Below, in pieces: positions 20,561-44,022 of a stretch of 44,224 bases of DNA. The notes beneath the pieces were generated by a model. The model searched no databases. It was not told the DNA's origin and was given only the letters and a program-made list of their open reading frames with translations. The position numbers and the translations under genes are program-made. This DNA comes from Lysobacterales bacterium (GTDB lineage Bacteria > Pseudomonadota > Gammaproteobacteria > Xanthomonadales > Ahniellaceae), in assembly GCA_031389245.1 (NCBI GenBank), contig JANMSL010000729.1, positions 1 to 44,224 on the forward strand. The letters run 5' to 3'. How positions within the stretch are numbered: the first letter of the stretch is position 1; every line of letters starts with the position of its first letter.

Positions 20561-22447
20561 CTACTCAAAACCATTTGCAAACACCGTATCGCCTGCGGGC
20601 AGCGTCAGCAATTCGATGCCATCGAGACTGACCTGCGCGCCGGCACCGACGATCACCTGTCGGGCAAACTCGAAGTTGGCAACGCCATCGGCCACGGTGG
20701 TCACAAACCCAATGCGCTGCGCCTGGCGCCAGCCGATGGCACTGTAGATGTCGTAGTTGTCGAGCACACGCGTGCCTTCGACAAGTGCGCCCAGGCTGCG
20801 TGTGGCATTGTTAAAGGTCACGGTATTGGAAAGGTAGAACACCGCCAGATAGCGGCCATTGGGCACGGTCAGTGCGTAGCTGAAGGCGGTTCCGCGGCGG
20901 CTGTCCAGATGCAGCACGTCGTCTTCGCTGCCATACAGCCCACGAAATCCGCTGTTGATGCTCGCTGCGCTGCCGCCGGTAAAGCCAGTGTCAGCCTCGA
21001 AGCTGACTGCACCATTGCCGACATCGGCTCCGGTCATTGCGGCGCCGCCGACATTGATCGCTCGCGCTGTCGGTCGCGGCGCGGCAGCGGCAAGCACCAG
21101 CACGGCAGATTCGCCATGCACTGGCGCGCCGCCGTCGTTGACGCTGACGCGCAGTCGATAGGCGCCTGCGTTGCTCGGGGTCCACCAGGCCAATTTCGGA
21201 TCGGCACTGTCGATTTCGAACGCGACTGTCGTGGGGCCTTCCAGCTGCGAGAAACTGATCGTCGCCGGCTGCGGCAAGTCGTCGTCGTCGACCAGTGCAC
21301 GCACGCGCAGCGGACGGCCAACGCGCGTAACCGGCTCCACCCACAGCACTACCCGCGGCGAGCGTGCGGCGGGAATGGGATGCACCACACGCACGCTACG
21401 CGAAAACGTCGTGTTGCCAGCAAACGCCGCGACATAGCTGGTGCCCGTTGCCTGGGCGCGCAGCACGGTGCTGGCGTCGGCTGGCACTGGCAACGCGGGC
21501 GCGGTGAACGATGTGGTGCCGGTGGCGGTGCCGCTACTCGCGCCAAAACTGTAGTTGACGCTGCTGACCGCGGCATCGGCAGCGCCCGTGGTGCCACTGA
21601 GCGCCACCGTGCCGGCATTGGTATACAGCGTGCCCCCATTCGCGGGCAGTGTGAGCTGCACCGCAGGATCAGTGAAGACCTGCGGCAAATGCCAGCGTTG
21701 CGCAATCAGCCAGGGTGCCAGTTTGGCGACCGCATAGCTCTGCGGAAAAATGCCGTGGCCACCGCTGGCGAATTCGGTATAGAGCGGATCGGCGCCCACC
21801 GTGCGCAGGCCGGCAACGCCTTCGCGTGACGAAATCGGCAATACGGTGCCATCGTTGGCCGCATGAAAAAACCACATCGGTACCCGCGCGATGATGGGAT
21901 GCGTCACCACATTGGAAATATTGTAGGCCGGGCAGACCGGCAACGCCGCCGCGGCGATGCTGTCGAAGTTACTGGCCAATCCCAGCGCGCCGGCCCCGCC
22001 CATGGACAGGCCGGTGACATACAGCCGCGCAGGGTCAAAGCCAAATTCGCGCTGTACGTCGTCGAGCATGTCGATCGAACCGACCAGTGGACCTTCGTTC
22101 GACCACCAGTCGTTGGGCTGGGTATTCGGGCACTGCGGCGCAACCACGATCATCGGCACAGCGGCCGCTTCGACCGCATTGACCAAAGCGAACATGCCGT
22201 TGGCACTGTTGTTCAACTGCGCAGTATTGTTGCTGCCGCGCTCCCCTGCGCCATGATAGAAAAGCAGCAGTGGGCAACGCCGATTGCTGCACGCCGCTGG
22301 CACGTAGACCCGATAGGGCAACGCAATCGCGCTGCCGCCATCCACCGACACTGTCCGCGATGCAAAATCACCGACCACCACCGTAGCGCAGGCAGTCAAC
22401 GGCATTAGCATCGACACCCAAAGCAGAACACCTGTGTGCGCTCGCAT
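20561..22447 (-). CDS. Lipoprotein alpha/beta-hydrolase esterase fused to Ig-like repeats and a malectin-like carbohydrate-binding domain
   Basis: 628 aa. Lipobox: LMPLTAC. Oxyanion region: LLLFYHGAGERGSNN. Nucleophile elbow: GLSMGG. Acid and base candidates: HAANDGTV and SGGHGI. Malectin-like segment: INVGGAAMTGADVGNGAVSFEADTGFTGGS. It ends in TVFANGFE followed by the stop. Confidence 0.75.
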   Translation of the reverse strand: MRAHTGVLLWVSMLMPLTACATVVVGDFASRTVSVDGGSAIALPYRVYVPAACSNRRCPLLLFYHGAGERGSNNTAQLNNSANGMFALVNAVEAAAVPMIVVAPQCPNTQPNDWWSNEGPLVGSIDMLDDVQREFGFDPARLYVTGLSMGGAGALGLASNFDSIAAAALPVCPAYNISNVVTHPIIARVPMWFFHAANDGTVLPISSREGVAGLRTVGADPLYTEFASGGHGIFPQSYAVAKLAPWLIAQRWHLPQVFTDPAVQLTLPANGGTLYTNAGTVALSGTTGAADAAVSSVNYSFGASSGTATGTTSFTAPALPVPADASTVLRAQATGTSYVAAFAGNTTFSRSVRVVHPIPAARSPRVVLWVEPVTRVGRPLRVRALVDDDDLPQPATISFSQLEGPTTVAFEIDSADPKLAWWTPSNAGAYRLRVSVNDGGAPVHGESAVLVLAAAAPRPTARAINVGGAAMTGADVGNGAVSFEADTGFTGGSAASINSGFRGLYGSEDDVLHLDSRRGTAFSYALTVPNGRYLAVFYLSNTVTFNNATRSLGALVEGTRVLDNYDIYSAIGWRQAQRIGFVTTVADGVANFEFARQVIVGAGAQVSLDGIELLTLPAGDTVFANGFE

Positions 22448-22758
22448 ACCCGCTCACCGTCTTTGTCGCTGAGCGCAAGATGATACACACGCGCCCGAAT
22501 CCGCGGCGCCCGCGCGCTGCCAACTGCATCACATTCTGCTTCATGCGGCTTGTCGGCGCACACGGTAGCGCCCGATCCCAAGACGACCGCGCACGGCGCT
22601 GTGCACTGGGAAACTGGTTAGTCGGTGCCGCTCACGCTTCTGCGTATGCTGGTGATTGGCGCGGCCAAAACGGTCAAGAAAATTTGAGCATTGCAGATTG
22701 ACTGAAGGCACAAGATGCCCGCATTGATCCCGTACTGATCGCGCGTACCCACGGCCAG

Positions 22759-30817: not shown

Positions 30818-32596
30818 TCACTCAAAACCATCGAAGAAGATTGGATCGATCTCCGTCTGCCAAACAATCAGCCCATCGGCATTGATCGGCGGCGCACCGA
30901 TGAACTGCAGTTGTCCGCTGGCCAGATCGACTCGGAACAAACCGGTCTGCGCCGCACTGGCGAGCGTCGCGTAGGCGGTGCCAGCGGCTGGCATACTGTT
31001 GGCCGGAGCGTTCACGCCAGGTGGAATGTCGAAACCGGCGCTGGACAGAAAATCAAATGCAACGCCGCCAAACGTCAAAACCTGGCTCGGGGTCTGAGTC
31101 CCGGCATTGGGTGGATTCTGGATCAACAGCTGATTGCCTGCAGGGTCGAGCGTGTACAAAGTGGTGATTGTCGTACCCGCAAAATTGTTGGTGTAGCCCG
31201 CACCGCCGAGGCCGGTCACGCCGGCGCCATTGATCGATCCGTCGGGATTGACGCCAGGGCTGGCGGCATCTCCATCGACCGGACCACCGGTGATCGGGTT
31301 GACGCGAAAGTTCAGGCCGTTGGTCAGAGACACGACGCGAAGTCGATCGACCGCGGGATTGAAGTCCACGCCGTAAGCCGTGTCAGCGAAATCAATCGGA
31401 GTGCCGACACCGTCGACAAAGGTGATTATGCCAGGCACACCGCCGACGATGGAGAGCGTACCGGTCTGCGGATCGACGACATACACGGTTCCGGTGTTGG
31501 TCGCCGCGTTGATGCCAAGAGCGTAGACGCCGCCTGTCGCCGGACGACCATCCATGCCTACGATCGTTTCGCCAGCGACCCCGCCGGTGAGCGACACCAT
31601 GACTGCGGACTGTGGCTGTCCCAGCGGAAACCGCGCGAGCTGCACCGACGCGACACTCGACACCAACGCAGTCGGGTTCACCGACACGGCGATATCGCGC
31701 GCAGTGATTCCACTGAAAGCACCGACCAACGTTGCCGTAGCGTTGGCCAAGTTGAGACGATAGAAGTTGCTGTTGCCGCCAACCAATGACACCAGGTAAC
31801 CGGTGCCATTGGCGGGAGCATTGCTGCTCGCCACGTCGACGCCGGGCGGAATATCGAACCCGGTGTCGACGTTGAGATCAAGCGGCGAGCCGTTCTGCAT
31901 CACAATCTGCGCTGCGGTCAACGTGCCCATGTTCGGCGGATTCTGGATCATCAATTGGTCGCTGGCCGCGTCGATCGTATACAGCGTTGTTGCCGTGGTG
32001 TTGATGCGACTATTCGTATAGGCGCAGGCATGCGCCGTATTGGCTGCACCGTTGAGTGCCCCGTCCATATTCAGGCCCGCTACGCTGCCGGGGCTGCCAC
32101 CCAGATCGCCATCAACGAATGCTCCGGTGTTGGGGTTCATGCGGAAGTTGCGCCCGTCGCTGGTGACCACGCGCACACGATCAACAGCGGGATTGAAGTC
32201 CACTCCAAATCCCGCGGAGGTGATCAGGACGGGCATCCCGATCGCGTCCACAAACGTGCCCGGTGTTCCGATCGGGGTCGCAAGCGCCGAGCTGATACTG
32301 CTGCTGATGTGGTACAGCTGTACGGTTCCGGCGCCCGCGTTGGCGCCCAAAGCATAGAGTCGTCCGTTCGATGGACGTACGTCGATTGCCTGCAGCGTGT
32401 CACCGGCATTCACGCCGGTGATCGGTAGCGGCGCGCCGATCGCGGTGGGCTGCGATTCGCTGCTCTGCGCCAGCTCGTTGTTGCTGGTCAATATATGCAC
32501 GGTGCGATCCGGCACGCCCGCCAACACGGAAGCCGCTGTCAGTGCGCAAAGCACTGCGACCAGCGCTTGAAGGCGAAGCCTGTATTTCTGATTCAT
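30818..32596 (-). CDS. Secreted protein with two DUF4394 domains
   Basis: 592 aa with signal peptide LQALVAVLCALTAASVLAG. The family hallmark occurs twice: GFGVDFNPAVDRVRVVTSDGRNFRMNPNTGA and AYGVDFNPAVDRLRVVSLTNGLNFRVNPITGG. LYTIDAASDQLMIQNPPN and LYTLDPAGNQLLIQNPPN are also duplicated. It ends in PIFFDGFE followed by the stop. Confidence 0.8.
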   Translation of the reverse strand: MNQKYRLRLQALVAVLCALTAASVLAGVPDRTVHILTSNNELAQSSESQPTAIGAPLPITGVNAGDTLQAIDVRPSNGRLYALGANAGAGTVQLYHISSSISSALATPIGTPGTFVDAIGMPVLITSAGFGVDFNPAVDRVRVVTSDGRNFRMNPNTGAFVDGDLGGSPGSVAGLNMDGALNGAANTAHACAYTNSRINTTATTLYTIDAASDQLMIQNPPNMGTLTAAQIVMQNGSPLDLNVDTGFDIPPGVDVASSNAPANGTGYLVSLVGGNSNFYRLNLANATATLVGAFSGITARDIAVSVNPTALVSSVASVQLARFPLGQPQSAVMVSLTGGVAGETIVGMDGRPATGGVYALGINAATNTGTVYVVDPQTGTLSIVGGVPGIITFVDGVGTPIDFADTAYGVDFNPAVDRLRVVSLTNGLNFRVNPITGGPVDGDAASPGVNPDGSINGAGVTGLGGAGYTNNFAGTTITTLYTLDPAGNQLLIQNPPNAGTQTPSQVLTFGGVAFDFLSSAGFDIPPGVNAPANSMPAAGTAYATLASAAQTGLFRVDLASGQLQFIGAPPINADGLIVWQTEIDPIFFDGFE

Positions 32597-32760
32597 GGCA
32601 AAGTTCTCCCGGAAATAGTTGCAAATTCCGCGTGAGCGGGATGAATTTCGACAACCGTCGCCCGCAAGCGCCCCCGAACCTTGGGAAATCCGTCGTCATC
32701 CCCGTCTACGCGGTCGGACCAGCCATTGGATGCACCGGTCACGAAGCAGTGTGCGCGATG

Positions 32761-34033: not shown

Positions 34034-34462
34034 ATGCAAGTCCGTCTTACATTTTTGTTTGGCGCGCTGATGTGTTTATTCATGATGGGCGCCGGCTCTG
34101 CGGAAGAGACCGTCGGTCGGGCACCGGCGATGCGCATCGCAACCGACCCGGGCGACCCTGTCGAACCTCAGCACGGACAATCAACCGCGCAACTTGCGAC
34201 TGCCGAGCAAGACCGGCTTACCCAGGCGAATGACCCTGCGTTTCGTCAAGCAGACGAGGGCCTGCAGATCATCTACTTGGAAGATGGCTCCAGCATGATG
34301 GAGCTTCAGGGTCGATTCCAACACGCTACCGTTGCCGAGGTGCAAGCGGATGCAAGCGTGCGAACACACTGCCAAGACGCTGATCATCTGAGACTTGGCG
34401 AGCATGTGCATGATTCGGTGGCGATACCGGCCAGAGCCAACTCCACCGCCGAAGATCATTGA
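34034..34462 (+). CDS. Hypothetical small secreted protein
   Basis: 142 aa. GAGGA lies upstream of the ATG. Signal peptide: LTFLFGALMCLFMMGAGSAEE. The stop lies 10 nt before the next gene. I recognise no family. Confidence 0.55.
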   Translation: MQVRLTFLFGALMCLFMMGAGSAEETVGRAPAMRIATDPGDPVEPQHGQSTAQLATAEQDRLTQANDPAFRQADEGLQIIYLEDGSSMMELQGRFQHATVAEVQADASVRTHCQDADHLRLGEHVHDSVAIPARANSTAEDH

Positions 34463-34472
34463 GGATTCTGTG

Positions 34473-35894
34473 ATGAAACCTCATTGCATTTTTGCCATCT
34501 CGCTCGCTCTGAGCACCCCGCTCGCCCATGCAGCCATCTTCGTGATCAACAATCTGAACACCGCTGGCGAAGGACTCAATGATCCGACGGTAGTCGCCGC
34601 ATTGCCCAGCAACCCGCATACGACTTTGGGCGAACAACGTCTTTACGTGTTACAGGCCGCCGTCAACCAGTGGGGCACATTGCTGCAAAGCTCGAGGCCC
34701 ATCATTGTCGATGCCACATTCGAACCGTTGGCTTGCACCAGCACCGCCGCAGTTCTTGGATCCGCCGCACCTCAGAGCGTCCATCAAAACTTTGCGAACG
34801 CTCCAGTGGCAAACGTTTGGTACAGCCAGGCATTGGCCAATTCATTGGCAACCACCGATTTGAGCGCCCTCAGCGATATCAGAGCGCGATTCAGTTCTAC
34901 GCTTGATAGTGGCTGCATGTCAGGTACACCGGGCTGGTATTACTCAACGCTCGCATCCGACACCACTGCGGATGGGCGCATTGCGCTGCTCCCCGTGGTG
35001 TTCCATGAATTGGCCCACGGCCTCGGATTCCAGACCTTTACCAGTAGCAACACGGGCGCCTTCAACGCGGGCGTGCCTTCGATTTGGGATACGTTTCTCG
35101 CGGATGCCGTTACCGGAACGACGTGGATCAACATGCCGGATAATGCGGCCAGGCAGGCCTCGGCGATCAGCGATCCCAATCTGATCTGGACGGGGCCGAT
35201 CGTGACTGCTGCGAAGAACAATTTTCTCGGCCCTGCACCGACGTTGATGGTCAACTTGCCAGCGACCATCGCCGGTCAAAGAGCCGCCCTTCCCGCTACC
35301 TTTGGCGCAACGGTGCCGGCGAAGGGGATCATCGGGGATGTGGTCGCAGCTGTGGATAGCGGTGGCGCGAACCTTCTCGATGGCTGTGAATCGATCTCCA
35401 ACGATGTGTCCGGCAAGATTGCGCTGATGGTTCGTGGCAATTGCAATGTCACGGTGAAGATCATGAATGCGCAAACGGCCGGCGCGATCGCAGCGCTCAT
35501 GCACCACAATACTGCTGCAGGGCTACCCAGCATGGCCGGAACCAATGCCGCCGTGAACATTTCGTCTTACGGCATTTCGCAGGCAGACGGCAATACGATA
35601 CGTGCGGAACTGTCATTACCGAGTGTGGTGAATGTGACGCTCGGATATGGCACGCAGATGGCCGGAACGACGCTCAGCGGGGGCACCCCTTTCGTGCGTA
35701 TGCATGCGCCCAATCCTTCGCAAGGCGGGACGGTGGCGCACTTTACTCTGGACGCATTCCCCAGCCTGCTGATGGAACCCGCTTACCCTGCCCAATACAA
35801 TGAAGCCGACCTGACGATTCCGTTGTTTGAGGACATTGGCTGGCAGGTGACGGTGCCGACGTCGCTGTTACCGTTCCAGGATGGCTTTGAGTAA
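34473..35894 (+). CDS. Secreted zinc-metallopeptidase-like protein with an inserted PA (protease-associated) domain
   Basis: The start at 34473 (MKPHCIFAISLALSTPLAHA) follows GAGGA. HExxH motif: VVFHELAHGLGF. PA-domain signature: GKIALMVRGNCNVTVKIMNAQTAGAIAALMHHN. It ends in LLPFQDGFE followed by the stop. Confidence 0.7.
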   Translation: MKPHCIFAISLALSTPLAHAAIFVINNLNTAGEGLNDPTVVAALPSNPHTTLGEQRLYVLQAAVNQWGTLLQSSRPIIVDATFEPLACTSTAAVLGSAAPQSVHQNFANAPVANVWYSQALANSLATTDLSALSDIRARFSSTLDSGCMSGTPGWYYSTLASDTTADGRIALLPVVFHELAHGLGFQTFTSSNTGAFNAGVPSIWDTFLADAVTGTTWINMPDNAARQASAISDPNLIWTGPIVTAAKNNFLGPAPTLMVNLPATIAGQRAALPATFGATVPAKGIIGDVVAAVDSGGANLLDGCESISNDVSGKIALMVRGNCNVTVKIMNAQTAGAIAALMHHNTAAGLPSMAGTNAAVNISSYGISQADGNTIRAELSLPSVVNVTLGYGTQMAGTTLSGGTPFVRMHAPNPSQGGTVAHFTLDAFPSLLMEPAYPAQYNEADLTIPLFEDIGWQVTVPTSLLPFQDGFE

Positions 35895-36152: not shown

Positions 36153-38138
36153 ATGCCCGCCGCGCGTTCCGCCTCACGCTCTGTGCTATCACGAACCGGT
36201 TTTTCGCTGATCGGCCTTTTGTTCATCGGTCCCTCCTTACTGCTTGCAAGTGTCCCGTTGGCCGCGCAGACGCTGCCAACACCCGGCATGGCAGTGCGCG
36301 GGCCCAACACGGCAGCAATGGTGTTGCCGGCCACCACAACGGAGGTCGAGATCGATGTCGCCGGCATGGTGGCGCATGCCCGTGTGCGGCAGCGCTTCAT
36401 CAATCCAGGCGACGATTTTCTGGAGGGTCAGTATCGGCTGCCGATGCCCGCCGACAGCGCCGTTTTCGCGATGCGCATCGAACTGGATGGGCGCCTGATT
36501 GAAGGTGAGATTCGCGAGCGCGAAGCCGCACGTATCGAATACGAAGCCGCCAAAAGTGCAGGCATGGCGACAGCACTGGTGGAACGCCAGGCGGTCGATA
36601 TGTTCTCTACCCGCGTCGCCAACATTCCGCCGAAGTCGGAAGTCAGCATCGAGATCGAATACTTCCAGAGTGTTGGCTATCGCGATGGCCGATTCGAGCT
36701 GGTGTTCCCGCTGACGCTGCGTCCGCGCTATGGCAGCACTGCGACGAACGACCTGAGCGCTGCACTCGATGCCGCAGAGCCGGCGGCTACAACCAGCGGA
36801 CTCACTCTGCCCGCCCGCATCGAAATTCATCTCGCCGCAGGCATTCCGATCCAGGCGCCGCAATCGGCTTCGCACGCGATTCTGGTTCAGCGCAAGGGGA
36901 AGGCATTTCAGATACTGACCCGCGAGGAGCGCGTTGCCGCGGATCGCGACTTCGTGCTGCATTGGACACCACAGTCCAATGTCGCCGCGCAGGCGGCGAG
37001 TTTTGTCGAGGAGATCAATGGCGAGCGCTATCTGAGCCTGATGCTGGTGCCGCCAACCCAGGCGGGTCCGCGCCTGCCTCGCGAACTGATTCTGGTGCTG
37101 GACAGCTCGGGCTCGATGATGGGTGCAGCCTGGAATGGCGCACAAAAGGCTGCGGACTTCGCGCTGACCCAGATCGCACCCGGCGACTTTTTCAATGTCG
37201 TCGATTTTGACAGCACTGCCAGTGCGCTCAGCCCGATGTCGTTACCGATGAATGCGCAAACCATCGCCACCGCGCGCGAGTTCGTTGCCACGCGCAGTGC
37301 CGATGGCGGCACCGAGATCGCCGGCGCGCTCGATCTGGCCCTGTCATTTCCGCCTATCAATACGCATGTGCGCCAAGTGGTATTCATCACCGATGGTGCG
37401 GTCGGCAATGAGGAGGAGATCTATCGTCATATCGCCGCGGGCAACACTGATGCACGATTGTTCATGGTCGGTATCGGCAATGCCCCGCACCGAGCTTTCC
37501 TGCGCCGTTCGGCGGAACTCGGCCGCGGCTTTGCCGAGATCATCGAGTCCGCCGACGCCGTCGATGTGCCACTGCAAGCCCTGTTCCAACGCATCGATGC
37601 GCCGGTGTTGACGCGTATCGAAGTCGAGTGGCCGGATTCGGCTGAAGCCTGGCCGAAGCAATTTCCCGATCTCTACGCCGGCGAGCCGTTGTGGTTGACC
37701 AGCCGCATGAAAATCGGCAACGCAGCCCGCCAGGAAGTGAAGGTAAGCGCGCAGGGCCTATCCGCGAAGTTTGCCAAGGGGATGCCGATCAAGCAGGCTA
37801 CGCCGGCTGTCGGCATCGCCAAGATTTGGGCACGACGCAAGATCCAGGCACTCGAAGACGAGCTCAATCTTGGCGCCAACGAGGAGAACGTTCGCACTCA
37901 AGTGTTGGCGACAGCGCTCGAGCATCGGCTGTTGTCGCGCTACACCAGCTTTGTTGCGGTTGAGAAAATAGTGCGCCGCCAGGAAGGCGACGCCCAGGGC
38001 AAAGCTGACTTTGCCAATCCCACACCAGCCGACGCCGAAGGATTCGCTCAAACCGCGCTGGGCTGGCGTGCGCTGTTGTTGCTCGGCCTGTTGATGATGA
38101 TGCTGGCCAGCGTCACGCTACTGCGCACGCGTGCATGA
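36153..38138 (+). CDS. VIT + von Willebrand factor A domain protein with a C-terminal sortase-type sorting signal (proteobacterial sortase target)
   Basis: The start at 36153 gives the signal peptide SLIGLLFIGPSLLLASVPLAAQ. VIT region: VEIDVAGMVAHARVRQRFINPGDDFLEGQYRLPMP...FSTRVANIPPKSEVSIEIEY. vWA MIDAS: LILVLDSSGSM. C-terminus: GFAQTALGWRALLLLGLLMMMLASVTLLRTRA (motif, hydrophobic span, basic tail). Confidence 0.85.
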   Translation: MPAARSASRSVLSRTGFSLIGLLFIGPSLLLASVPLAAQTLPTPGMAVRGPNTAAMVLPATTTEVEIDVAGMVAHARVRQRFINPGDDFLEGQYRLPMPADSAVFAMRIELDGRLIEGEIREREAARIEYEAAKSAGMATALVERQAVDMFSTRVANIPPKSEVSIEIEYFQSVGYRDGRFELVFPLTLRPRYGSTATNDLSAALDAAEPAATTSGLTLPARIEIHLAAGIPIQAPQSASHAILVQRKGKAFQILTREERVAADRDFVLHWTPQSNVAAQAASFVEEINGERYLSLMLVPPTQAGPRLPRELILVLDSSGSMMGAAWNGAQKAADFALTQIAPGDFFNVVDFDSTASALSPMSLPMNAQTIATAREFVATRSADGGTEIAGALDLALSFPPINTHVRQVVFITDGAVGNEEEIYRHIAAGNTDARLFMVGIGNAPHRAFLRRSAELGRGFAEIIESADAVDVPLQALFQRIDAPVLTRIEVEWPDSAEAWPKQFPDLYAGEPLWLTSRMKIGNAARQEVKVSAQGLSAKFAKGMPIKQATPAVGIAKIWARRKIQALEDELNLGANEENVRTQVLATALEHRLLSRYTSFVAVEKIVRRQEGDAQGKADFANPTPADAEGFAQTALGWRALLLLGLLMMMLASVTLLRTRA

Positions 38139-38677
38139 AGCGACTTGCACTGCGCGGGCTGGCCTGGCTACTGCTGATTGGCGGCGGCCTGCTGTCCGCG
38201 CAGGCGCTGTATCCGCTCGCCAAAGGACAACTGGCGATGCGGTTGATCGCCGATGCGTACGCGCATTCTCCCGGCAGCCGACCGTGGCCACAGGCGGATT
38301 TTCGCGGCGTCGCGCGGCTGCAGGTGCCGCGCCTGGATGTGAACCAGATTGTGCTCGACCAGGCCACGCCGCGCGTGCTCGCGTTCGGCCCTGGGCTGGT
38401 GCATCGCAATCGACACGCCGGTCCGATCATCAGCGCGCATCGTGATACGCACTTCAACTGGATCGGTCGTTTGCAGCAGGGAGATGAACTGCTTTGGGAG
38501 CAAGGCGGTGTGGTCCATCGCTATCGCATCGCCGCGTTTCGTGTCGTGGATAGTGACCAGCAGCGCATCGCGCTGCCCGACTCCGAAACCTTGTTGCTCA
38601 CTACTTGCTGGCCGTTGGAAGCATTGACCGCGGGTGGTTCGATGCGCTACGTGGTGACCGCCATCGTGATGCGCTGA
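38135..38677 (+). CDS. Sortase, Gram-negative (class GN / marine proteobacterial) type
   Basis: The ATG at 38135 overlaps the target gene stop (ATGA). N-terminal anchor: GLAWLLLIGGGLLSA. Catalytic His context: IISAHRDTHFNW. Cys: LLLTTCWP. Arg: GGSMRYVV. Confidence 0.85.
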   Translation: MKRLALRGLAWLLLIGGGLLSAQALYPLAKGQLAMRLIADAYAHSPGSRPWPQADFRGVARLQVPRLDVNQIVLDQATPRVLAFGPGLVHRNRHAGPIISAHRDTHFNWIGRLQQGDELLWEQGGVVHRYRIAAFRVVDSDQQRIALPDSETLLLTTCWPLEALTAGGSMRYVVTAIVMR

Positions 38678-38694
38678 AGATTTTGACAACTGCT

Positions 38695-40200
38695 TCAGTC
38701 GTGCTGACTGGGCGCTGCGTTTTCGAATCCGTGCTTGAACAGCAAGTCCGGCCGAAATTCGATGGCGCCTACGTCGCAAATCGCGACGCCGTTGGCATCA
38801 CCGTCGTAAGGTCGTGTGGCACCGCGCGCGTCGGTCGACGGACACAGCGTAAAGCTGCCGTTGTCGATGGCCGGGCTACCCGGCGCTACGTCGAGCGTCG
38901 GCACGTAGCCCCCATTCATCGCCGGCGGCTGCAACCCGAAATTGTTTCCGGGGAACTGCGCAGTGATCAAATTGCCGGCGACACTTGCATAGCAAGTGTT
39001 TCCGGTCATGAACACGGCTTCGCCGGCGTCGGAATTGAATGCGGTTTCCGCGCAACTTTCACCAAAAAGCGGCGGCCCGAACAACACATTGCGCATGTCC
39101 CGTACGGGTGTCGGCGCGCCCAGGCTGGTACCGAGATCAAGGTCGGATCCGCTGCCGCTGTGGGCGGTGTTGCGATGAAAGGTGACGTTGCTCAATCGTA
39201 GATCAGCGGGCTGGGCACCGACCGCAAAAATAATCAGGCCACCACCTCGGTTTGCAACATTCTCGAAGAACGTCACATTTTGCATCTGCAACCGCACCGA
39301 TTGCAGCAGAACCGCGCCGCCAGAAAAGCCTTCGTTCTGCCCAAAGTACGCGTTGTTGATAAACACGTTGGCAGCAGCCCCCGTGCTCGAGCTGTAAATG
39401 GCCAAGGCGCCGCCACGCCCGCGTTGTCGGCTGGTCTGACACTGGGTCCAGTTGCCGGTAAAGCTCACGTCAGCGAATTGGGCGTTTTGACCCGCGGGCA
39501 GGAACATGGCGACCGCACCGCCGTCACCGGCTGGACAACCGCCGGTCGGATTGGATTTCAGGATGCGATTCTGCTGAAACGTACTGCGCGCGATGCTCAC
39601 CATGGATCTCGCGGCGATTGCGCCGCCGTCCGGCAATGGAGCCAGCAGATTGTTGTCGTTTGCTTCATTTCCGGTAAAACGCGATCGGATCACCGAGAGC
39701 GGACCTTCCGCATAAATCGCACCACCACGTCCGGAAACCGAGTCATTCGCTGCCGCGCGGCAGTCTTCGAATACCAGATTGTCGACCTCGGCAATCGTTG
39801 CTACGCGCATGACAGAAAGGCAACCGCCGAAGGGTCTGCTGCCGCCTCGTAGCGTAAGGTTGCGCAGCGTGAGTCGCTCGGTATCGCCGGAGAAATCCAC
39901 ACGAAACATGCCCTGGCCGTTGCCATTGATCACCAGTCCCGGTGTATCGCCGCCATCGATCAGCACTTCGCTACCACGCACTGCCGGCAGCGTCTGGCCC
40001 AACGTGATAACGCTGTTGGCGGGCAGCTGGAAACGCACCACCTGCACGTTTGCACCGGGACTCAACTGGGTAACGGCAGCATCAAGTGTGCCCGGTCCGT
40101 TGGCTGCGGCGGAAGTGACCATCAGTGTCGTCTGTGCTTGCAGGACGCCTGCAATTGCGCCCGCAAGCAACACCGCAACAGTGCGTAGTGGCAAGAACAT
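38695..40200 (-). CDS. Secreted right-handed beta-helix protein (choice-of-anchor Q-like)
   Basis: 501 aa with signal peptide VAVLLAGAIAGVLQAQ. Repeated beta-helix rungs: GGAIYAEGPLSVIRSRFTGNEA, GGAVAMFL, GGALAIYSS, GGGLIIFA. C-proximal ICDVGAIEF is typical of this repeat class. The tail is LLFKHGFENAAPSQHD. Confidence 0.65.
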   Translation of the reverse strand: MFLPLRTVAVLLAGAIAGVLQAQTTLMVTSAAANGPGTLDAAVTQLSPGANVQVVRFQLPANSVITLGQTLPAVRGSEVLIDGGDTPGLVINGNGQGMFRVDFSGDTERLTLRNLTLRGGSRPFGGCLSVMRVATIAEVDNLVFEDCRAAANDSVSGRGGAIYAEGPLSVIRSRFTGNEANDNNLLAPLPDGGAIAARSMVSIARSTFQQNRILKSNPTGGCPAGDGGAVAMFLPAGQNAQFADVSFTGNWTQCQTSRQRGRGGALAIYSSSTGAAANVFINNAYFGQNEGFSGGAVLLQSVRLQMQNVTFFENVANRGGGLIIFAVGAQPADLRLSNVTFHRNTAHSGSGSDLDLGTSLGAPTPVRDMRNVLFGPPLFGESCAETAFNSDAGEAVFMTGNTCYASVAGNLITAQFPGNNFGLQPPAMNGGYVPTLDVAPGSPAIDNGSFTLCPSTDARGATRPYDGDANGVAICDVGAIEFRPDLLFKHGFENAAPSQHD

Positions 40201-40296
40201 GGTGACTCCAAGGCCAGCGGTGCATCCGCTTCTGTCCTTTGATACGCAGGATCGCCCTGAAGACGGTCAAAGCCAGGTCAACAACCGTTCTCTTGG

Positions 40297-41202
40297 TCAA
40301 ACACCAGACTCCTGGTCCACAATCAGACTCTCGGTCAGCAACCAGTCCACAAACTGTTGCGCCACCGGTCGCAGACGCCGATGCGCGGGATAGACCACGT
40401 GGTAACTCCAGCGCGCCGGAATCTTCGGGCCGGGCAGTTCGATCAGGCTGCCGTCCGCCAGCCAAGGCGTGACGATGCGTTCGCGCGCCAACGCTGCGCC
40501 CAGTCCATGCGCCGCGGCGTGTAGCGCATCGGTGCTATCGCTGAACGTGTAGCGCTCATCGATCTTGGCGCCATGCACACCGGCAGCGCGAAACCAATCC
40601 TGCCAGCCCTGTCGTGACAGGTCTGCAACCAATGGCAGCCGTGCGATCTGCGCCGCATTGCGCAGCTTGCGCACACCGGGAAACTTTGGCGACGCTACTG
40701 GAAACAATGCTTCGTGCATCAACGCATGCGCGGTCAACCCGGGCCAATGGCCCGGGCCATGACGGATCGCGAAATCGGCTCCGGCATCATCGAAGCGAGT
40801 CAGCGCAATTTCTGTCAGCACAAGCACGCGCACCTGCGGATGCAGCGCTGCAAAACGCGGCAGGCGCGGCATCAACCAGGTGAATGCCAACGAATGCAGC
40901 GTGCTGATTCGTAGCAATGACTGCGCATCCTGGTGCCGGCGCAGGTCAGCCATCACCACTTCGATATCACCGAGCGCACTGCTGGCCGCGTCGGCCAGTT
41001 TGCGTCCCTCAAGTGTCAACGTCACGCCGCGCGCGTGGCGTTGAAACAAAGCTGAGCCCAGGCGCGACTCGAGCTTGCGCACATGGTGGCTGACCGCACT
41101 CGCGGTCAGGTGCAACTCCTCGCCCGCATGGGCGAAGTTCTGATGGCGCGCTGCGCATTCAAACGCCGCCAGCGCCGACAGCCATTCCGGGCGTAGTCCC
41201 AT
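40297..41202 (-). CDS. LysR-family transcriptional regulator (GcvA-like)
   Basis: The start at 41202 is MGLRPEWLSALAAFECAARHQNFAHAGEELHLTASAVSHHVRKLE (wHTH). The 520-aa track ORF is an unsupported 5' extension running antisense through the DMT gene. Confidence 0.85.
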   Translation of the reverse strand: MGLRPEWLSALAAFECAARHQNFAHAGEELHLTASAVSHHVRKLESRLGSALFQRHARGVTLTLEGRKLADAASSALGDIEVVMADLRRHQDAQSLLRISTLHSLAFTWLMPRLPRFAALHPQVRVLVLTEIALTRFDDAGADFAIRHGPGHWPGLTAHALMHEALFPVASPKFPGVRKLRNAAQIARLPLVADLSRQGWQDWFRAAGVHGAKIDERYTFSDSTDALHAAAHGLGAALARERIVTPWLADGSLIELPGPKIPARWSYHVVYPAHRRLRPVAQQFVDWLLTESLIVDQESGV

Positions 41203-41307
41203 ATGAGCCTCAAATCTGATTTGTGTCTGGCAGCCAAAGTATGCGCTTGTCGATACCCGGCAGGCGAGGACAATACGAACCCAGACACGAGCGAGCTTTG
41301 CGCCACG

Positions 41308-42216
41308 ATGACCACGATGACCGTCACCCCTGCTGAAACCCTCGACAACGGCGAACGCGCGTGGTTGACCCCACTTGAACTCGTCCTGCTCGCCGCGGTC
41401 TGGGGTGCATCCTTCATGTTTCAGCGCGTCGCCGCGCCCGCGTTCGGCACGCTGCCGCTGGTTGAGATCCGGCTCGCACTCGGCGCGATGGTTTTGCTGC
41501 CCTTCCTGTGGATGGCACGCAGCCACTTTCCACTGCGATTGTGGCCGCGCATTGCGCTGATCGGCGCAATCAATTCGGCGATTCCGTTCGCGCTGTTTGC
41601 CTGGGGCGCACAACATGCCCCGGCCGGCATCGGCGCGATCACCAACAGCCTGGCAGTTCTGTTTACTGCTCTGGTCGCGTTCCTGTTTTACGGTGAGCGC
41701 ATCGGGCTGAAGCACAGCATTGCATTGATCATCGGCTTCGCCGGCGTAGTCGTACTCGCCAGCGGCAAGACCGCAGGCAGCAATGTCGGGGGCGCCGTCG
41801 CTGCCGGTGTCACCGCCGCATTTCTCTACGGCGTCGGCGCCAACCTGTTGCGTCGTCACCTGACCGGCGTTCCACCGGTGGCTTTGGCCGCCGCCACGTT
41901 GTCCTGCGCTGCGTTGCTCACGCTGCCGTTCGCGATCGCGAGCTGGCCGACAAATTCTCTTTCCATCCCGGGTTCCGCGTGGTTCTCCGCCGCGATGATC
42001 GGGGTTGCCTCCACAGGCGCCGCCTACGCGCTCTACTATCGGCTCATCCGCCGCGTCGGTGCGGCACGCGCGGTTACCGTGACCTACCTGGTGCCGTTGT
42101 TTGCAGTGGCCTGGGCCTGGTCCCTGTTGGGTGAACCACTGACGTTGCCGATGTTCATATCGGGTGTGTTGATCATTGGTAGCGTTGCGCTGAGCCAGCG
42201 CTCGCAGCGCTTGTAG
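41308..42216 (+). CDS. DMT-superfamily (EamA-like) transporter
   Basis: The start at 41308 is MTTMTVTP. About 10 hydrophobic helices are present, with duplicated EamA halves (LLAAVWGASFMFQRV... and ...AYALYYRLIRRVGAARAVTVTYLVPLFAV). The gene is divergent from the LysR gene. Confidence 0.85.
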   Translation: MTTMTVTPAETLDNGERAWLTPLELVLLAAVWGASFMFQRVAAPAFGTLPLVEIRLALGAMVLLPFLWMARSHFPLRLWPRIALIGAINSAIPFALFAWGAQHAPAGIGAITNSLAVLFTALVAFLFYGERIGLKHSIALIIGFAGVVVLASGKTAGSNVGGAVAAGVTAAFLYGVGANLLRRHLTGVPPVALAAATLSCAALLTLPFAIASWPTNSLSIPGSAWFSAAMIGVASTGAAYALYYRLIRRVGAARAVTVTYLVPLFAVAWAWSLLGEPLTLPMFISGVLIIGSVALSQRSQRL

Positions 42217-42417: not shown

Positions 42418-43638
42418 GGCGGTTTCAACCGGTCAACGCAACAATCTGTTGTAACTTCTGAGCTGGCGTCAGAAAGCCCAACGTCTTTCTTGGTCGCTCA
42501 TTGAGCTCACGCGCTATTTTATCCAATTGGCGCTGCGTGAGAGATGATAGATCTTTCCCTTTCGGGAAGTATTGTCGCAGCAGGCCGTTGGTATTTTCGT
42601 TGCTTCCTCGTTGCCAGGGACTGTTGGGATCACAGAAATAGACCTGCATGTCGGTCGCCATGCTGAAGTCTTTGTGTTGAGACATCTCCTTGCCGCGATC
42701 CCACGTAAGTGATTGCCTTAGCTGCGCCGGCAAGCCGCCAACGACGCGTTTGAGCGCGCCGACCACTTCTTGGGTGTGCTTGCTACGTACCCTAACCAGC
42801 GTCAGAAAGCGCGACTGACGTTCGACCAGCGTGCTGACGTAGCTGTTGTTGCTGCCCGCCAACAGATCGCCTTCCCAGTGCCCAGGAACAGCACGGTCTT
42901 CGATCACCGCTGGCCGTTCGCTGATGGAGACCGCATCGGTGATCTTCCCCCGACCACCTTCGCTACGTACCTGCTTGGATTGACGCATCAATCGCTGGAA
43001 ACGCAAATGCGTCATCAGCTCCCGTTTCAGCGCGCCGCGCGCCTGGACATACAAACTCCGATAGATCGTCTCGTGCGACACGCGCATCGTCTCGTCGGCC
43101 GGGTACGCCAGCTTAAGCCATTGCGCGATCTGCTCCGGAGACCAGTGTCGTTTCAGCTTTCCAGCCACCACCCGCTGCAGCCGGTGCCGGCTTGCCAGCA
43201 CGCACATCTTGGGACGCAACGCACTCTTCCAGGCGCGCGTATCAGCCTGCTCAGCACGATACTGTTCGCGCCCACCGTTGCGCTTCACTTCGCGACTGAT
43301 CGTCGAGGCCGACCGCCCCAACAACAACGCGATCTGCCGTAACGACTGCCCCTGGGCAAGTCCCCGCGAGAGACTCTCTCGCTCCGTCAAACTCAACGTC
43401 TGCTCCGAACGCCGCCGCTCCCGTGGTGAAATGCCCCCATGGGTCTTCAACACCCAACGCACCGTCGCAGGAAATCGACCCAAGCCCCGCGCGATGTCCA
43501 CAATCGAATCGCCTCGACGCCACTGATCCCACAACCGCTTCCTATCTTCGGCGCCGATCCGCTCCCACTGTCTTTTGGCCATTGCTTCTTCCTCATCGAA
43601 TTCACCATGTGGTGATGCATCGACCAGTTGAAACCGCC
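42418..43638 (-). mobile_element. IS30-family insertion sequence, about 1.22 kb (ends approximate, plus or minus 6 bp)
   Basis: Imperfect terminal inverted repeats are GGCGGTTTCAACCGGTCAACGCAACA (42418 inward) and GGCGGTTTCAACTGGTCGATGCATCA (reverse complement from 43638 inward). A single transposase gene fills the element, and its stop lies inside the terminal repeat, as in IS30. Confidence 0.75.
42425..43582 (-). CDS. IS30-family transposase
   Basis: Start chosen at 43582 (MAKRQWERIGAEDRKRLWDQWRRGDSIVDIARGLGRFPATVRW, HTH). DDE region: PGHWEGDLL...LTWDRGKEMSQH...VYFCDPNSPWQRGSNENTNGLLRQYFPKG. The track ORF to 43939 reads through the flanking repeat. Confidence 0.9.
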   Translation of the reverse strand: MAKRQWERIGAEDRKRLWDQWRRGDSIVDIARGLGRFPATVRWVLKTHGGISPRERRRSEQTLSLTERESLSRGLAQGQSLRQIALLLGRSASTISREVKRNGGREQYRAEQADTRAWKSALRPKMCVLASRHRLQRVVAGKLKRHWSPEQIAQWLKLAYPADETMRVSHETIYRSLYVQARGALKRELMTHLRFQRLMRQSKQVRSEGGRGKITDAVSISERPAVIEDRAVPGHWEGDLLAGSNNSYVSTLVERQSRFLTLVRVRSKHTQEVVGALKRVVGGLPAQLRQSLTWDRGKEMSQHKDFSMATDMQVYFCDPNSPWQRGSNENTNGLLRQYFPKGKDLSSLTQRQLDKIARELNERPRKTLGFLTPAQKLQQIVALTG

Positions 43639-43644
43639 CATCCA

Positions 43645-43813
43645 AAGAGAAAGTGACTCGCGCAAAGCGCGAAAACGTTTTGTCAGCGCAACGCGATGAC
43701 GCACCCAAAGGGTGCTGGCTGTTGCTATTTTCCAACGAAACATCACAACAAAAGCTTCGCGGCTGAAGCCGCTCCCACAACAGCGGAGCATCGCGGCTCA
43801 CGCCGCTCCAACG
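43645..43813 (-). repeat. Right 169-bp arm of the large palindrome (inverted copy of 42245-42413)
   Basis: It contains the inverted REP units CTTCGCGGCTGAAGCCGCTCCCAC (43755-43778) and ATCGCGGCTCACGCCGCTCCAAC (43790-43812). Confidence 0.85.
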
Positions 43814-44022
43814 AGAGCGCGCATGCGACATTTGATGGCGACCGAGCGCGGCCGTCCCCAGAACAAATTCATTACTCGGTCGGATTCGTGTTTTCGGAAA
43901 ATGTCCAGTCTGCTGACGATCTCTCGTTATGCCAATCAAGACCCGGGAACCAAGTGTGTCGCGGAAATCCGTGTTTCAGTGGATAATTCTTGATCCTGGC
44001 TCAACGCGAGGAAATCCCGTGG

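Follow-up and report, generated by a model that had tools for sequence, protein, structure and literature searches.

The window analysed here is the whole of a 44,224-nucleotide stretch of DNA (contig JANMSL010000729.1 of assembly GCA_031389245.1, from a Lysobacterales bacterium). On its forward strand, between positions 36153 and 38677, lie two genes that encode a protein with VIT and vWA domains and a sortase (Table 1). Gram-negative sortases were first noticed about twenty years ago. Our results support the view that this locus encodes a proteobacterial, class-GN-type sortase and its VIT-vWA target. The sortase/target family itself is already known. What is new here is a distinct sorting signal, a co-diverged subclade of sortases that score below the curated cutoff, and the lack of the Pds genes that adjoin the pair in some relatives. 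The host is diderm; five TonB-dependent receptors are encoded in the window.

The target clearly belongs to the sortase-target family, TIGR03788 ("marine proteobacterial sortase target protein"). It scores 574.7 bits against this model (cutoff 551.65 bits; E 2.3e-172) and covers profile positions 3-621 of 629. Homologues use the same start methionine as the ATG at 36153. In the AlphaFold2 (AF2) model the region of the predicted signal peptide is a helix (residues 19-37) followed by a low-confidence linker, and cleavage would probably occur at the small-residue site A-A-Q. The MIDAS (metal ion-dependent adhesion site) of the vWA domain is intact (D317-x-S319-x-S321, T387 and D414), and none of these residues varies in sets of 16 and of 60 homologues. 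The target is also a full-length bacterial homologue of the inter-alpha-inhibitor heavy chains (ITIH). Its AF2 model, with a predicted local distance difference test score (pLDDT) of 86.3, has ITIH1 (6fpy) as its top Foldseek match (E 1.4e-39, template modelling score 0.61-0.66, ~600 columns), and the profile of the target family matches the eukaryotic proteins PARP4 (3.8e-78), ITIH4 (1.1e-58) and ITIH1 (2.9e-41).

The target ends in ...ADAEG-FAQTA-LGWRA-LLLLGLLMMMLASVTLL-RTRA, and the peptide stretch of its signal region reads ...AEGFAQTALGWRA... The sequence FAQTA occupies residues 631-635 (nt 38043-38057) and is the sole match to the pattern [LFMWY][PA]x[TG][AGS] in the target. The AF2 model has a helix over residues 638-660, and residues 631-635 are the only segment of the C-terminal part with a pLDDT below 50. 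This segment separates the folded body from the membrane helix, as would be expected of a linker that is open to a protease at the membrane face. Further sortase substrates would also end in a hydrophobic span and a basic tail, and no other real gene of the window does. One other candidate motif, LPATT at residue 58, was rejected as a sorting signal because it lies within the conserved VIT domain and has no membrane segment downstream.

We compared the window with 93 related loci: 80 from representative genomes (among the matches listed), one from a metagenome and 12 from exact-protein look-ups. From the first 89 of these loci and the window we drew 77 complete target/sortase pairs, and the motif counts given below come from a full-length MAFFT alignment of their targets. 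In this alignment the fourth motif position occupies a single column in 77 of 77 pairs, which makes FAQTA the homologue, by position, of LPxTA. The tails of relatives with LPKTAT or LPQTAT pass the generic LPXTG-anchor model TIGR01167 (18.5-20.4 bits, cutoff 15.9) and weakly match NF058670, the model of the class D LPxTATN signal. The tail of the window target matches neither of these models, nor any other curated model, at E <= 10. Since curated models miss F-A-x-T-A-L-G-W, surveys of sortase substrates in diderms will miss such targets.

The sorting signal of the family is much looser than "LPXTG". Position 1 of the motif is L in 35 members, F in 21, M in 6, W and Y in 4 each and another residue in 7. 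Position 2 is P in 57, A in 18 and S in 2, and Pro is absent from the motif in 20 of the 77. Position 3 is mostly Q (40), followed by K (11), A (10) and R (10); position 4 is T in 67, G in 9 and S in 1; position 5 is A in 65, G in 6, D in 4 and S in 2; and position 6 is T in 56 and L in 12. Thus, an earlier reading of the window from its sequence alone (the sequence-only reading) was right to give LP[QK]T[AS]T as the family consensus, in that LPQTAT and LPKTAT are the commonest hexamers, but it was mistaken in taking Leu and Pro as the most conserved positions. The conserved positions are Thr4 and Ala5.

The same reading had treated FAQTA as exceptional, and this view does not hold either. A motif could be assigned in 116 of the 120 target clusters nearest to the window target; position 2 is Ala in 52 of these 116, and 19 of the 120 have the full form [FL]-A-x-[TG]-A-[LI]-G-W. 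The signal F-A-x-[TG]-A-[LI]-G-W is not a one-off but the norm throughout a lineage related to Xanthomonadales. The lineage retains it from 92% down to ~42% overall identity, and its members already bear the NCBI names "marine proteobacterial sortase target protein" and "class GN sortase".

Three further features of these signals came to light. In some members the fourth residue is Gly and the motif lacks Thr altogether (FAQGALGW, LAQGALGW and FAQGSVGW, in L086 and L052, in P0020-P0024 and in the FAQGS[LTV]GW group, e.g., L089). A signal without Thr at P1 would be more unusual for a sortase than the change of Pro to Ala. In P0003 (L084, 6001-8067), P0004 and P0005, relatives with 74-77% identity, the whole sorting signal is tandemly duplicated. 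The first copy consists of FAQTALGW, a membrane span and RSR; the second has its own span and basic tail and has lost FAQT but kept ALGW (FSGNALGW, SSGNALGW and PARNALGW). Lastly, a second conserved element precedes the motif, at residues ~617-628 of the window target (nt ~38001-38036). It reads "FANPxPAD" in the lineage of the window and "NLPxGW(D/E)(Y/F)xKVFG" in most other clades, with a linker of variable length to the motif, and it may serve for extended recognition or for docking.

The second gene of the pair encodes a sortase by several measures. It scores 62.4 bits (4.6e-17) against PF04203 (cutoff 26.6 bits). TIGR03784, the "class GN sortase" model, is its best sortase model by far, with class D next (57 bits), although its score of 131 bits (3.3e-38) is under the TIGR03784 cutoff of 158.25 bits. 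The NCBI name "class GN sortase" is carried by cluster P0134, which is 59% identical to it. The AF2 model (pLDDT 95) has a long anchor helix (residues 3-44) and a beta-barrel, and its best Foldseek matches, at 1e-9 to 3e-11, are all sortases (classes E, C, A and D). Of the solved structures, the Bacillus anthracis class D sortase 2LN7 is nearest to it in sequence (E 4.8e-8). Across 69 sortase homologues, residues H102, R103, D104, T157, C158 and R171 do not vary. The cysteine motif reads L-L-T-T-C rather than T-L-x-T-C (TLVTC), with Thr156 in place of the usual Val or Ile.

Most of what the sequence-only reading had claimed for the two proteins agrees with these results. The VIT and vWA architecture is found by PF08487 and PF13768, and the target passes TIGR03788, one of two profiles proposed as a check. 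The other, TIGR03784, gives a mixed answer: it is the best model for the sortase, and its cutoff is not reached. The tripartite signal (motif, hydrophobic span and basic RTRA), the presence of FAQTA at the motif position, the ATGA at 38135-38138 that couples the two genes and the catalytic His (SAHRDTH), Cys (LTTCWP) and Arg (SMRYVV) are all as described. Among the findings named as counting against the claim were two that an alignment can show: a canonical motif elsewhere in the target, and loss of the catalytic Cys or His in an alignment. Neither is seen, because LPATT in the VIT domain is the only other candidate and the triad is intact.

Table 1. Features of the target-sortase locus (positions in the window; residues are those of the respective protein).
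Feature	Position	Strand	Residues	Basis or remark
Sortase target gene (661 aa + stop)	36153..38138	+		ATG 36153, TGA 38136-38138
Predicted Sec signal peptide, MPAARSASRSVLSRTGFSLIGLLFIGPSLLLASVPLAAQ	36153..36269	+	~1-39	basic N-terminus, hydrophobic core, A-A-Q site
VIT domain	36336..36662	+	62-170	PF08487, 1.6e-29
vWA domain	37083..37541	+	311-463	PF13768 (VWA_3), 1.9e-19
Sorting motif F-A-Q-T-A-L-G-W	38043..38066	+	F631, T634, A635, W638	homologue of LPxTA(T)
C-terminal hydrophobic membrane span, LLLLGLLMMMLASVTLL	38073..38123	+	641-657	mean Kyte-Doolittle 2.59
Basic cytoplasmic tail R-T-R-A	38124..38135	+		sequence
ATGA overlap, target stop/sortase start (translational coupling)	38135..38138	+		sequence
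Sortase gene (180 aa + stop), divergent class-GN-type	38135..38677	+		PF04203
Sortase N-terminal membrane anchor, GLAWLLLIGGGLLSAQAL	38156..38209	+	~8-25	hydrophobic sequence
Beta3/beta4 loop ("GPG-L-V"), candidate determinant for the Phe-Ala signal	38396..38401	+	Leu88-Val89	alignment
Catalytic His (SAHRDTH)	38438..38440	+	102	invariant; aligned to 2LN7 His
Catalytic Cys (LTTCWP)	38606..38608	+	158	invariant; aligned to LTTCYP of 2LN7
Catalytic Arg (SMRYVV)	38645..38647	+	171	invariant; aligned to R-Y of 2LN7

The sortases of the F-A-x-[TG]-A-[LI]-G-W lineage form a divergent subclade of their own. All eight that were scored, including that of the window, fall below the TIGR03784 cutoff (115-148 bits), and in the sortase homology search the bit scores fall sharply after 17 clusters. 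The sortase of the Arenimonas locus L089, which is paired with FAQGSVGW, scores 195.7 bits. Ten sequence positions are diagnostic of the subclade, among them F56 and R57 (in the WPWADTW motif), T156 and L88 (in "GPG-H"). Position 88 also differs with the signal. Among 79 sortases, His88 is present in 42 of the 63 with other signals and in none of the 16 that are paired with [FYL]-A signals; these 16 have Leu (9), Trp (5), Phe (1) or Arg (1). Loss of Pro is not generally tied to a change in the sortase, an idea that we rejected, as six independent signals without Pro keep an ordinary His88 sortase. Position 1 is small or polar in all six (AAKTAT, CAATAT, GAQTAT, NAQTAT, TAQTAT and TSQTAT), and the correlation is confined to the [FYL]-A type of signal.

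Position 88 lies in a loop that is known to affect specificity in another class. Pro is present at P3 in ~90% of known sorting signals, and class E sortases process LAXTG; their preference for Ala or Pro is set by the beta3/beta4 loop, in which a Tyr is proposed to read the Ala at P3 (PMC5148588). In our alignment Val89 of the window sortase corresponds to Tyr128 of Thermobifida fusca SrtE and Leu88 to the Trp that precedes it. From the sequence we take Tyr128 to be the S3-subsite Tyr of class E described in that work (PMC5148588). The signal thus travels with a sortase subclade that differs in the loop behind the Pro/Ala preference of class E, which makes positions 88 and 156 candidates for mutation. 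We raise tentatively, and with more doubt than confidence, the possibility that GN sortases of the Leu88 type, together with a sister clade of the Trp88 type, are natural proline-independent sortases that act on F-A-x-T-A-L-G-W, with an aromatic P4, Ala at P3 and an extended primed side, and cut between Thr and Ala. If so, they would use a beta3/beta4-loop route unlike the class E tyrosine, and their signals would be a second independent origin of signals without Pro, and the first in diderms. Such an enzyme could also be orthogonal to LPXTG sortases in protein ligation.

The two genes are inherited together. The same 4-nt overlap is found in about a third of the 77 related loci, and the two-gene pair alone is conserved in every locus examined. 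A representative-genome scan gave no close relative among the matches listed, and a metagenome scan gave one locus, L081, with 92% identity. In comparison with L081, the target has a ratio of nonsynonymous to synonymous substitution rates (dN/dS) of 0.128 and the sortase one of 0.127, and in more distant comparisons the two proteins diverge in step. Both genes are under purifying selection. A protein homology search gave ~780 target homologues at E <= 1e-20, and the sequence of the window locus itself is present in freshwater-sediment metagenomes.

The window locus is a minimal two-gene cassette. In Shewanella algae the target and sortase are part of the Pds system, a set of five co-regulated genes that also includes pdsS, pdsR and the OmpA-like pdsO (PMC11580497). 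No PdsS (TIGR03785) or PdsR (TIGR03787) homologue was found at E <= 1e-3 in the 44-kb window or in L081-L088, and no OmpA-like match to PdsO was found in the window or in its eight closest relatives. As reference copies, PdsR in L089 scores 358.8 bits (cutoff 335.7), PdsS is represented by its best match, and PdsO in L036 scores 270 bits (cutoff 152). PdsS and PdsR adjoin the pair in ~35 of the 93 loci, mainly gammaproteobacterial ones, and are absent next to the pair from the alphaproteobacterial and Nitrospirota loci examined. PdsO-like open reading frames (ORFs) lie upstream of the target in a few loci only (e.g., Shewanella L036 and L067 and Agarivorans L071). Hence only part of the family fits the five-gene Pds system.

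Based on these results, we think it probable that the locus is a functional, minimal two-gene class-GN sortase cassette of a diderm, belonging to a subclade linked to its signal, with cleavage by Cys158 and a wall-tethered product. We postulate that Sec exports the target and that the C-terminal helix and RTRA tail hold it in the inner membrane, with the FAQTALGW linker at the periplasmic face. The membrane-anchored sortase would bind this linker. Its recognition would have shifted from Leu-Pro to Phe-Ala, helped by the change of His88 to Leu in the beta3/beta4 loop and by the subclade changes F56, R57 and T156. Cys158 would then attack the Thr634-Ala635 bond, as class D sortases do between Thr and Ala of LPxTA, and form a thioacyl intermediate. 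An amine would resolve this intermediate, and the likeliest candidate is the side chain of meso-diaminopimelate in peptidoglycan or in lipid II. Class D sortases anchor proteins to diaminopimelate cross-bridges, classes D and E use meso-diaminopimelate in Gram positives, and the walls of proteobacteria contain the same amine. By analogy, we infer that the bond between Thr634 and Ala635 is cut and that the target is attached to peptidoglycan. This would give a metal-dependent vWA adhesin or scaffold that is tethered to the wall in the periplasm.

Several observations weigh against this interpretation. The sortase scores below the curated TIGR03784 cutoff, and class A, B and D sortases are reported to be unable to process Ala at P3 (PMC5148588). 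The window sortase lacks the class E Tyr and has Val89. Close relatives carry FAQGALGW, which has no Thr, and cleavage between Thr and Ala may therefore not hold throughout the lineage. Support for expression was not found, and the runs that contain the sequence are all DNA metagenomes. In the literature that we searched for class GN biochemistry and for motifs like LPQTAT, LPKTAT and FAQTA, there were only mentions in genome surveys and one Shewanella transcriptome study. No class-GN member in this literature is biochemically characterised, and so the cleavage, the scissile bond and the acceptor are all putative. Lastly, the association at position 88 (Fisher p 6e-7) ignores phylogeny, and the 16 sortases represent two neighbouring clades and about two evolutionary events in a neighbour-joining tree. 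The link to position 88 is thus a lead and not proof.

To our knowledge, every characterised sortase is a transpeptidase, with hydrolysis as a slow side reaction. This counts against the idea that the window sortase is mainly a releasing protease, in which case water would resolve the acyl-enzyme and the target would be freed to the periplasm or to another acceptor (outer membrane or polysaccharide). The closest characterised class, class D, anchors its substrates to diaminopimelate, an amine that is also in proteobacterial peptidoglycan, and this too argues against release. In addition, one component of the Shewanella system, the OmpA-like PdsO, binds peptidoglycan, and this suggests the wall as the destination (PMC11580497). 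Some evidence favors release or another acceptor. The searched literature contains no report of the acceptor for class-GN systems, and the target is homologous in structure, over its full length, to ITIH1, which is C-terminally ester-linked to chondroitin sulfate after loss of its pro-domain (PMC7170535). Bacterial VIT-vWA homologues elsewhere bear exosortase or rhombosortase signals (PMC3237569), so that C-terminal processing appears to be a conserved theme. On balance, we consider a mainly releasing enzyme unlikely.

Attachment could also proceed with a register or scissile bond that differs from the LPXTG analogy. The enzyme might read A-[LI]-G-W, or Phe together with G-W, and cut, for example, after Ala635 or Gly637. 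In that case FAQTA, although it aligns with LPxTA, would not be the pentapeptide that functions as the signal. The residues that are invariant in the lineage are Phe1 and L/I-G-W at positions 6-8, and position 4 alternates between Thr and Gly (FAQGALGW and FAQGSLGW). Elsewhere in the family Thr6 is retained when position 4 varies (LPQ[TGS][AG]T-D), and the duplicated second signals of P0003-P0005 retain NALGW and not FAQT. However, Thr4 is the most conserved residue of the motif (67 of 77), the window target has it as Thr634, and characterised sortases all cut after position 4, which is P1 (PMC5148588). A shifted register seems to us distinctly unlikely. We judge it highly improbable that the signal has decayed and is unprocessed, in which case the C-terminal helix would simply keep the target anchored in the inner membrane, and the sortase would be a relic or act elsewhere. 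Decay would fit the lack of a match between the window tail and curated models that relatives' LPKTAT and LPQTAT tails do match, the low TIGR03784 score, and the absence of the dedicated regulators and PdsO. It is unlikely because the triad and the MIDAS are invariant, dN/dS is ~0.13 for both genes and the sortase model has the sortase fold. The lineage has also kept the eight-residue motif, the two genes have equal divergence rates and retain their coupling, and no other protein of the 44-kb window bears such a tail.

The genes around the pair are not parts of the system. Directly upstream, on the same strand, is the PA-domain protein that the sequence-only reading had called a metallopeptidase; it has a metallopeptidase-like region and ends in ...PFQDGFE. 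The downstream neighbour is encoded on the minus strand and ends in ...FKHGFENAAPSQHD. The claim that the pair is flanked by two GFE-tailed proteins is therefore accurate for the upstream protein, and the downstream one has GFE 10 residues before its end. Because only the target-sortase pair is conserved across relatives and the neighbours differ, we rejected the PA-domain peptidase and the GFE-tailed flanks as parts of the system and regard them as bystanders. The only neighbours that recur are a LysR-family regulator and an EamA transporter downstream (40297-41859 on the minus strand and 41203-42216 on the plus strand), which are also found in L082 and L084; this indicates local synteny and not a functional link. 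Small ORFs (41-72 aa) between target and sortase in L089 and L091-L093 are probably not genes, as their sequence is not conserved and matches no model. A promoter scan found no sigma-70-like site upstream of the pair, and terminator-like matches there were unconvincing. Close to the end of the window, at 42425-43939 on the minus strand, is an IS30-like transposase (HTH_38 and rve integrase core).

The GFE tails are of some interest in their own right. Four unrelated predicted secreted proteins of the window end in hydrophobic-F-x-[DNH]-G-F-E. They are encoded at 34392-35894 (+), 30818-32695 (-), 20561-22453 (-) and 38695-40266 (-), and comprise a metallopeptidase with a PA domain, a DUF4394 protein, an esterase-like protein that has a malectin domain, and a protein with PMP repeats and a choice-of-anchor Q domain. 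GFE is exactly C-terminal in three of them (...PFQDGFE, ...IFFDGFE and ...VFANGFE), that is, in 3 of the 58 window ORFs of at least 200 aa. In relatives the same tail is found on M36 peptidases and other proteins (L083, 1757-5113; L087, 2-3136; L084, 8669-10078; L081, 6540-8111). No membrane segment follows the tail, no NCBIfam model matches it, and a literature search gave no paper on it. It looks like an undescribed, lineage-specific C-terminal tag.

An apparent fusion of target and sortase was also seen. P0105 (821 aa, on two contigs) has WPRTAT and a single hydrophobic span, followed directly by the stalk and the catalytic domain of a sortase. A lone span would place its halves on opposite sides of the membrane, so it may be an artefact of assembly or a frameshift.

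The window locus would represent a defined natural change of specificity. It does not make the question of the acceptor easier than the canonical systems in culturable hosts do. Since it is a bare two-gene cassette, without PdsS, PdsR and PdsO, it should be a compact unit for heterologous reconstitution. Its nearest known counterpart is the Pds system of Shewanella, Colwellia and Bradyrhizobium, which has the same core genes in the same order, often with the ATGA overlap, and a VIT-vWA target that passes TIGR03788, is the single dedicated substrate and has its motif in the homologous column. In contrast to the Pds system, the window has the signal F-A-Q-T-A-L-G-W instead of LP[QK]TAT, a sortase below the cutoff and in a separate subclade, and no PdsS, PdsR or PdsO in its 44 kb. 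The missing regulators are not unique to the window, because about half of the loci of the family also lack adjacent regulators.

Among characterised sortases, class D (B. anthracis SrtC/SrtD, 2LN7; LPxTA/LPxTATN) is the closest by sequence. The family consensus LPxTAT resembles LPxTATN, and Ala at P1' is common to both. However, the window sortase stays far below the class D cutoffs (56.9 bits against 165 for NF033746 and 56.9 against 140 for NF058671), its host is diderm and its signal has neither Leu nor Pro. Class E (Streptomyces coelicolor SrtE1 and T. fusca SrtE; LAXTG) is the only characterised class with a natural Ala at P3. Structures of T. fusca SrtE are the top Foldseek matches of the window sortase (3e-11), the loop that differs in the subclade is the beta3/beta4 loop that sets class E specificity, and the Trp of T. 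fusca SrtE sits where the sister clade with FA signals also has Trp. Unlike class E, the window signal has Phe rather than Leu at P4 and Ala rather than Gly at P1', and the sortase scores 26 bits against the class E model NF033747, whose cutoff is 160.

The target protein invites a wider comparison. The VIT-vWA module of ITIH1, ITIH2, ITIH4 and PARP4 has full-length homology to the target, with the MIDAS intact. ITIH heavy chains lose a C-terminal pro-domain and are then linked to a glycosaminoglycan through an ester with the new C-terminus (PMC7170535). The ITIH attachment is a glycosaminoglycan ester made without a sortase, whereas the window locus would use a predicted cysteine transpeptidase and a membrane-anchor signal. 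The parallel nonetheless leaves room for an acceptor other than peptidoglycan. In bacteria, VIT-vWA proteins bear at their C-terminal end a signal for a sortase, an exosortase or a rhombosortase (PMC3237569). We speculate, by analogy, that covalent tethering through the C-terminus may be a shared and ancient property of VIT-vWA proteins.

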